In this document: piece by piece, positions 1 to 21,753 of the stretch | How positions within the stretch are numbered: the stretch's first letter is position 1 | Layout of the letters: each line of letters begins with the position of its first letter | From: Pseudobdellovibrionaceae bacterium | GTDB lineage: Bacteria > Bdellovibrionota > Bdellovibrionia > Bdellovibrionales > Bdellovibrionaceae | Assembly (NCBI GenBank): GCA_039810425.1 | Contig: JBDHWW010000046.1 | Location: forward strand, 1-21,753 | Length of the DNA: 21,753 nucleotides | Reading direction: 5' to 3' | Program-made: the position numbers and the translations under genes | The notes under the pieces: generated by a model | Seen by the model: the letters and a program-made list of their open reading frames with translations, nothing else | Told to the model about the DNA's origin: nothing | The model's database searches: none

Positions 1-196
1 GGGTTTTTCGCATAAATTTTAAAGAGCAGCTCTAACGCAAATCACATCGCCCGTAAGAGCGCCAAGCCCCTTCGCCCCGAAGCGATCTCTAGCGAAAAAC
101 AAAAAAACAAGGACTCGCCCAAGAACTCGCGCCCAAAGCAAAGCTCCGCACACAAAAATCACGTCAACACGAAATCACACAATTATTAACTGTGAT

Positions 197-376
197 TCTG
201 CCCTCCTGGCAGATGGGGGCCGTCCGCCCCCATTCCCCGGGAAAAGACGGACCATCCGGGTCCGTCTTTATTATCCCAATTAAGCCTAGAACTCCTGATG
301 CGGGAGGCATCAGGAGTAGCGGGAGTTTGAGGGGAGAGCCCTCAACAGACAGGATGTCTGTTTGCAGTGACTCTGC
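197..376. repeat. Array of perfect inverted repeats with 5-nt loops, organised as two head-to-head three-hairpin units (197-269 read on -, 291-361 read on +) plus a small trailing hairpin; candidate structured RNA or ssDNA element
   Basis: TCTGCC-ctcct-GGCAGA (197-213); ATGGGGGC-cgtcc-GCCCCCAT (213-233); AAAGACGGACC-atccg-GGTCCGTCTTT (243-269); ACTCCTGATGC-gggag-GCATCAGGAGT (291-317); TTGAGGG-gagag-CCCTCAA (327-345); AACAGAC-aggat-GTCTGTT (344-362); GCAG-tgact-CTGC (364-376). Confidence 0.85.
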
Positions 377-769
377 GGTAATAAAAAACTCTGCATTCTC
401 CACCAAAGCCTTGATTTCACTTCGCCACATTATCACCAAGCACTCACAGCAACGAGGCCCAATCCTCGCCGCCCACAAAAAAAAGAAAGGGCCGGGGCAA
501 GGAACACAAATGAAAGCGACAAGTGCCGGAGAGATCGACTGAAGCCCCCCCCCCTCCGCCCCTTAGCACAAAACAGCCCCTTCTAAAAAACGCAGAGCTC
601 TTTTCCTTACAATAATACAAGTTGGTATGGGCTTAACTGAACGGTATTAAGCGGCGGCAATGTCGAGTTTTTTGACGATCGGGGAGTGTTTACCGCGCCT
701 TTACGATTTTATTTAATTGTGGAAAAGTGTCCTTTATATTCAGGCTTCATATTAAAAAAGTGAGGGGTT

Positions 770-21630: not shown

Positions 21631-21702
21631 GCGTCCTGTTCAAGTTAAAATTCAAGAGCACTCTTCAAAAATTAACAAACCTCCATATCCACATGCCTGG
21701 CG

Positions 21703-21753
21703 TTATGACTTTCGCGATTTGACGACTTCGTAGGTGCTGGGAGCGGTTTTGAA
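21703..21753 (-). CDS. Possible 3' end of a gene entering from the right edge
   Basis: Open frame FKTAPSTYEVVKSRKS* ending with TAA at 21703; too short to confirm. Confidence 0.3.
   Translation of the reverse strand, partial: FKTAPSTYEVVKSRKS

Follow-up and report, generated by a model that had tools for sequence, protein, structure and literature searches.

Head-to-head three-hairpin repeats and a multicopy Y1 HUH transposase element in Bdellovibrionales

Main

The window, a stretch of 21,753 nucleotides at the start of a contig from a Pseudobdellovibrionaceae bacterium, carries near its left end two three-hairpin units arranged head-to-head, hereafter called the left and right units. The preliminary description, made from this stretch alone, had no means of showing that the pair belongs, as one module, to a multicopy element that carries a transposase gene. 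The units share a fold, form a family, pair head-to-head by rule and point outward around genes for a Y1 HUH transposase. By analogy with known systems, we give a probability of roughly 55% to the reading that the Y1 family recognises the units as the folded, single-stranded ends of a REP/PATE-like system, whose gene-less derivatives are the doublets.

Structure of the doublet

The left unit (197..269, minus strand) is formed by stem 1 at 243–269, stem 2 at 214–232 and stem 3 at 197–213, and points to the side of the Y1 gene. The right unit (291..361, plus strand), with its stems at 291–317, 328–344 and 345–361, points away from that gene, and a strandless, AT-rich spacer at 270..290 separates the two. 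All six stems first described in 197..361 are found there, and the DNA minimum-energy structures are the three hairpins of that description. Folded as RNA, the units reach z-scores of −4.7 to −6.6 on all four strands, and folded as DNA −5.8 to −7.2, with 0 of 200 shuffles as stable. The right unit has the geometry of 14 upstream units of relatives, and the left unit scores 80.8 bits with the R3 model.

A covariance model built on the right unit only recovers the left unit with 39.5 bits (E = 2.3e-9), its next-best matches in the window being a stem of the right unit itself, read on the reverse strand (16.5 bits), and then a match of 8.1 bits. When the two units are aligned by fitting them to the three-hairpin structure, 12 of 23 pairs differ between them and 12 of 12 are compensated on both sides, which bears out the earlier observation that the stems differ in sequence and still pair. 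The stem lengths first given are correct for the window but not for the family, where stem 2 counts 7 pairs and stem 3 just 4. Likewise, the TAATAA reported after each unit is, for the right unit, found in this copy alone among 22, the other 21 having CAATAA. Rfam returns nothing at the gathering threshold, in line with the earlier failure to assign a known family, and at E ≤ 10 it gives four weak matches only, all far under the cut-off.

Two variants of the right unit are seen elsewhere. The 5-nt loop of its first stem is inverted in the copy at G000:C37:90-116, with the stems intact, and a 20-bp piece overlapping the foot of stem 1 is tandemly repeated, with 1–4 extra copies, in the spacers of G000:C43, C34, C37, C57 and C59.

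Covariation and range of the family

The family unit is made of three hairpins in approximately 65–75 nt, and the letters it conserves are those of the loops (C-N-G/C-G-A-N-G) and of a G-rich linker. The covariation that had been suspected within one locus extends to homologues: among 97 distinct units, in an alignment fitted to the model and drawn from related genomes that are not independent, 22 of 22 pairs covary, 96% of cells are paired and 697 changes are two-sided, with slid controls at 26–52%. The pair cells comprise 1929 Watson–Crick, 38 G-T (1.9%), 22 A-C and 59 other combinations. Covariation alone is no proof of selection because template switching, in our view, can also maintain perfect palindromes. 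The fixed geometry of three stems and the loop letters, retained across families, are a stronger sign of selection than covariation.

Further copies, whose absence was said to count against a conserved unit, are widespread. A model of two sequences finds units in 18 of 149 family genomes, and the refined model finds more, in at least 38 of 149. Units are present in at least 21 of 149 genomes of an order sample, from 7 of 13 families, and in at least 4 of 149 genomes of a phylum sample, one of them doubtful (G236, two weak matches, 32 bits); all these genome counts are lower bounds, given strict filters and at most 32 candidates scored per genome. One genome, G005, holds 41 units. The covariance model alone found them, and a plain DNA search of 40 relatives gave nothing meaningful. 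A pattern scan of the species collection returned 69 matches, including 2 full units, both from Bdellovibrionales; it missed known units and therefore does not bound the range of the family. Viral contigs gave 1 pattern match, which is not a full unit.

Several genomes of genus g3 keep units at orthologous sites, with covarying stems (L097, L100 and L102; L091, L119 and L162; L167 and L173). Going by sequence likeness of the genes, these sites presumably lie between nusG and rplK, after recA and before thrS.

Two additions to the unit occur in other genomes. Units L158, L059, L152 and L159 of G005 contain, at varying positions, a 20-nt mini-insert that forms a hairpin with a GAA loop. In 8 of 129 units (from G006, G066, G085, G020, G342, G326 and G375), versus 1 of 129 controls, stem 3 is succeeded by a CCAC...TAGA tail, and some of the tails resemble a DnaA box.

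Arrangement of the units

Where a partner hairpin lies within 300 nt, the arrangement is nearly always the one seen here: head-to-head for 36 of the 89 units with full flanks, tandem for 3 and tail-to-tail for 0, against a background of 0.01 per 300 nt (9 further units, too close to contig ends, were dropped). Spacers between head-to-head partners span 19–282 nt, the short ones being AT-rich, and in many doublets, this one included, the two units are of different types. Units are also found singly. By crude ORF calls, the outer end of a unit is turned toward the 3′ end of the neighbouring gene in 68 of 94 cases. Replichore orientation, assigned by local GC skew, shows no bias for single units (22:21, of 45), Y1 copies (14:13) or arms (9:12); on G005:C3, the suspicion of a replichore switch did not hold up. 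No −10 peak emerges from 83 upstream flanks, and a T-run follows only 5 of 93 units.

The Y1 element around the doublet

Positions 1..597, to which no strand is assigned, form the non-coding 5′ arm of the multicopy Y1 HUH element, whose gene sits shortly beyond the window's left edge, on the minus strand. Positions 1–770 match 34 places in the genome, mostly contig ends, and up to 24 of these cover 376–391. With C56, contig C4 shares an overlap of 86 nt and contig C46 one of 56 nt, at 98% identity. In C56, which the left end of the window overlaps, a 163-aa ORF starts approximately 68 nt further out on the window's minus strand; this is the transposase start, and the ATG at 11–13, once proposed to open a gene, does not do so. 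Because the window begins at a contig end, the gene link of this copy has to be drawn from overlaps, and from the overlapping copies C4 and C56 we infer that this doublet copy probably belongs to the arm of the Y1 gene.

In run X1, perhaps from the source sample itself, contigs over both units are read at approximately 22 times the depth of unique sequence. The genome holds six near-full-length Y1 copies, 94–100% identical, with the 3′ end of the gene at 31 places and the distal arm at 24, and the copy number of the element is 20–30. Between doublet and gene lie motifs that are kept upstream of Y1 genes in relatives: TTGAC at 162..167 (minus strand), followed by a GGGGC motif in 21 of 32 Y1 loci (loci of at least 45% identity); GGGGCGAAG at 70..78 (minus strand), in 22 of 32 loci; and an extended −10-like box just left of the window, in 16 of 32. 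The set of TTGAC, GGGGC and extended −10, rather than the three-hairpin unit, is the most widely conserved feature upstream of Y1 genes.

On the doublet's other side, a distal arm module occupies 358..460 (plus strand); four copies with unique flanks begin at 357–359, within the 3′ arm of stem 3. A short terminal motif of the AAAACGSAGAG type follows at 585..597 (plus strand), where the match of this copy to others ends, and the same type of motif also terminates many copies at the 3′ side of the gene. Element ends in this fragmented assembly show two recurring motifs and ragged boundaries, and the doublet lies inside the arm. Four junctions at 357–359 and one at 200/201 hint at a conserved cleavage site at stem 3, but a sixth falls at 202/203 and the number is too small, and the idea was set aside.

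The genome contains several further arrangements. The end of a second collapsed repeat closes the window at 21679–21752 (about 12 contig ends; a related repeat has about 19), and this repeat joins the doublet spacer at window position 272 in copy G000:C105, also in the independent run X2. A two-hairpin variant of the unit lies between the Y1 promoter and start in three copies (set of G000:C103, C62, C67 and C11), and G000:C11 has a full unit 3′ of the Y1 gene. A diverged Y1 paralogue at G000:C8:68575-69210 (L022) has no catalytic Tyr, and the end of G000 C36 (L023) carries a separate, canonical RAYT-type gene (Y-x3-NP) with a short repeat family of its own.

The Y1 HUH protein

The 163-aa protein is a Y1 HUH transposase with H80-I-H82, Y141 and an invariant N145 (Y-x3-N), set in the motifs WSHIH and YHELN, with no Pro after the Asn. 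Its predicted fold matches IS608 TnpA (E = 2.6e-5) and, with the best geometry of the matches, Escherichia coli TnpA-REP 4ER8 (TM 0.58, rmsd 3.6 Å); the protein combines an HUH motif and a single catalytic Tyr with a predicted TnpA fold. It scores 18.9 bits with the NCBIfam IS200 model NF033573, for which the cut-off is 55, also lies under the cut-off of Pfam Y1_Tnp and has no match to the RAYT model NF047646 at E ≤ 1. Of 150 family genomes, 104 hold relatives of the gene, frequently as many copies, and by their source names these relatives fall in Bdellovibrionales; a plasmid search found none. The N terminus (residues 1–8 of P0001 and its relatives) has a conserved Gln, then hydrophobic residues and a Phe, which we take to recall the sliding-clamp binding motif.

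Units beside Y1 genes

Of the 21 units located no more than 1.2 kb from a Y1 gene, 20 point outward, 14 of them upstream and 6 downstream; six loci of this count were chosen through the gene or after adjacency had been noticed, none by orientation. The outward orientation spans four families, and Y1-flanking units are found in g1, g155, G361, G313, G045 and G056. The gene on G361:C11 is flanked by two outward units, G313:C224 has units at both sides, and copies in genus g155 have a unit at the upstream side only. In another family, all 10 units retrieved from G342 and G326 are 290–440 nt upstream of a Y1 gene. In G005, a unit hairpin lies within 700 nt of 5 of 7 close Y1 genes or fragments, at differing positions, versus 53 of 382 control genes, which came from pieces already centred on units.

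The converse search gives lower figures. A unit hairpin is near the Y1 gene at 7 of 54 loci of the first Y1 sample and at 0 of 5 loci of close metagenomic relatives; most Y1 loci have no nearby units, and therefore the gene can exist without them. Co-occurrence across order genomes is flat, with Y1 in 13 of 21 unit-bearing genomes versus 68 of 128 others. The gene is absent from about 72 unit-selected loci, L090 alone having one outside this genome, and from 10 of another 20 loci. Beside the unit-selected loci no gene family other than Y1 recurs; DUF222/HNH genes were considered as a partner and set aside, being found at two loci only.

In genome G366, 20 identical units are carried within an ISL3 element, where they sit upstream of the transposase and point outward; the genome gives no Y1 match at E ≤ 1e-10. 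This 1.5-kb ISL3 (L299:600-2120) is present in 20 copies with the unit near its end, and the L299 copy seems to split a nucleotidyltransferase-like ORF, a host label guessed from the translation.

Candidate mechanisms

By analogy with TnpA-REP and PATEs, binding, cutting, doublet mobility and an origin by deletion may be pictured as follows. When the region becomes single-stranded, the enzyme would bind the strand that bears the C-N-(G/C)-G-A-N-G loops, with the Y1 family recognising the units through shape and loop sequence together. Tyr141 would then cut near a unit, and the strand would be joined elsewhere. Because the units are inverted, one of them would be available in the active sense on each of the two DNA strands. 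Were the gene between two units lost, a doublet would remain, as described for PATEs, and such doublets could then sit alone between genes or ride within the arm of another copy, as may be the case in this window. For TnpA-REP, the accessible text of the sources gives loop bases as the points of recognition and places cleavage between C and T or between C and A (PMC8266576, PMC3333891). Among the options first offered for the pair, a REPIN-like element recognised by a Y1/RAYT HUH enzyme is thus the one that homologues and gene context support, with binding and cutting by the enzyme as its presumptive part.

The same associations could arise if the unit were a small repeat, mobile in its own right through a different enzyme, that prefers sites in or beside mobile elements (Y1, ISL3 and HNH genes) and is amplified as their passenger. 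Its place within ISL3 in 20 copies, the missing Y1 match in 8 of 21 unit-bearing order genomes and two units behind DUF222/HNH-type genes all fit, as does the targeting of IS605-type elements by small repeats of Haloquadratum, reported in the available part of PMC3119063. A passenger does not account for the fixed outward orientation that 20 of 21 units keep around the Y1 genes of four families, for a Y1 gene lying between two units or for the lack of any other recurrent gene family, and we find this account doubtful. Another proposal, that the unit's reverse strand blocks transcription or forms a structure that stabilises RNA, and so shields transposase genes and spacers from read-through, draws on the units that lie upstream of both Y1 and ISL3 genes, outward-pointing and facing gene 3′ ends, so that incoming transcripts meet three stable hairpins. 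It leaves the conserved loop letters of the opposite strand, the 6 downstream outward units and the doublet rule unexplained, a simple terminator scan did not call the units, and we regard it as highly improbable. Bidirectional single-strand initiation or priming of replication, also among the first options, is hardly credible: inverted structured arms do flank an AT-rich spacer, but single units have no replichore bias, the distribution is patchy and multicopy, and the one pattern match in viral contigs holds no full unit.

A role in RNA was the remaining option, as a structured ncRNA pair. The structure is indeed conserved; an RNA role is weakened by the lack of a promoter peak and of a U-tract and by the 1.9% of G-T cells. 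In its specific form, the units would be transcribed and act as CsrA-binding sponges like CsrB or RsmZ; mobile elements would spread them, and the host would at times retain them. In 79 of 97 units, loop 3 reads A(N)GGAN with a closing C-G pair, in 5-nt and 6-nt forms alike, which is the motif bound by RsmE in the accessible text of PMC4005645, and GGA occurs 2.9 times per unit on the loop strand versus 0.75 on the other. Moreover, csrA is present in this genome and in 10 of 10 unit-bearing genomes tested, CsrA of Bdellovibrio is functional (PMC13443453, available text), and units persist at the orthologous sites of genus g3. Against these points, loop 1 fits A(N)GGAN in 6 of 97 units only and its commonest form (29 units) has no GGA, the flanks show neither −10 peak nor frequent T-runs, G-U pairs are rare, no unit is detected in 111 of 149 family genomes, and csrA adjoins fliW, which encodes its protein antagonist. 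The outer ends of units also face the 3′ ends of neighbours, by the crude ORF calls above, and neighbouring mRNAs therefore carry the opposite unit strand. RNA runs X18 and X19 contain short repeat pieces at a depth of about 4 only, which says nothing on expression. Taken as a whole, the sponge account appears decidedly improbable.

A bolder version of the preferred reading, folded DNA ends recognised by the Y1 family, is unlikely: a still-mobile RAYT-like transposon in Bdellovibrionales with inverted ends set by the three-hairpin shape and not by sequence, a living intermediate between IS200 and the domesticated REP/RAYT, the loops of which double as CsrA sites when transcribed. If true, it would tie transposon ends to the translational regulator CsrA of the host. 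The origin and spread of REP-type repeats are open because the known RAYT genes are immobile and their repeats old. Here, a RAYT-like enzyme is present in 20–30 near-identical copies alongside a structured repeat that occurs singly, as a doublet and on both sides of the gene, and the path from transposon end to dispersed repeat therefore becomes directly testable. Stems free in sequence, with geometry and loop letters fixed, would be a new mode of recognition by an HUH enzyme.

Comparison with known systems

REP/BIME (REPIN) repeats and their TnpA-REP/RAYT enzymes, together the REPtron, are likewise intergenic palindromes in inverse pairs with a variable linker and often two unit types, according to the available text of PMC3333891, PMC8266576 and PMC5581495. 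As in a REPtron, some of the repeats lie around a Y1 HUH gene, here with a predicted fold that matches 4ER8, and inverted doublets are dispersed between genes (36 of 89 units head-to-head, with the 41 units of G005). As opposed to REP, a single hairpin of approximately 20–65 nt, the Bdellovibrio unit has three hairpins with conserved letters in the loops, and neither the unit alignment nor the flank profiles contain a conserved 5′ GT[AG]G foot. The RAYT signature is Y---NP, whereas the protein here has YHELN. RAYTs are reported as single-copy and REPtrons as non-transposing in the accessible part of PMC5581495, whereas the Y1 gene here is multicopy and near-identical.

With the ends of IS200/IS605 and with PATEs, the element shares a Y1 HUH transposase, hairpins near both ends, and high copy number and identity (PMC3119063, PMC6006769, parts available); PATEs are described there as gene-less derivatives formed by core deletion (PMC3119063), the origin proposed here for the doublets. 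IS200/IS605 enzymes have Y-x3-Q, whereas this one has Y-x3-N and scores under the IS200 cut-off. Furthermore, no tnpB lies beside the five full copies examined, and the ends are inverted in architecture with ragged termini. IS200/IS605 elements show an orientation bias with respect to replication and target the lagging strand (PMC6006769, in part), in contrast to the units, Y1 copies and arms here.

The TnpA-Y1 classes of Quentin et al. 2018 (subclass 2.1 TIRYT, 2.3 and 2.6, and class 3) and the TIRtrons also include Y1 genes with inverted or atypical flanking structures, some of them multicopy (PMC6006769, PMC3733652), and class 3 is proposed as an intermediate between IS and REPtron (PMC6006769), all as given in the available text. 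WSHIH and YHELN match none of the signatures listed in the portion of PMC6006769 at hand (class 2 with Y---NP; classes 1 and 3 with Q). Unlike those of TIRYT and TIRtron, the inverted ends here share structure, not sequence; a stretch fitting the TIRtron GGGGWSAS is present in one end motif of this genome's element, in some copies only. Bdellovibrio is not named in the available main texts of PMC6006769 and PMC3733652.

The CsrB, RsmY and RsmZ RNAs share with the units A(N)GGAX loops on stems closed by C-G, in loop 3 (PMC4005645, in part). The units differ in their long perfect stems, in a loop 1 that is mostly off-motif and in being multicopy and mobile, and searches for a promoter of their own, an intrinsic terminator and an Rfam match found none.

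Our literature search, mostly without subscription papers and without ISfinder, found neither such repeats nor this Y1 clade described for Bdellovibrionales. The units and their enzyme represent a real, conserved and apparently undescribed variant of Y1-associated structured repeats, one that by analogy would work like REP/BIME with RAYT or PATE with TnpA, yet belongs to neither.
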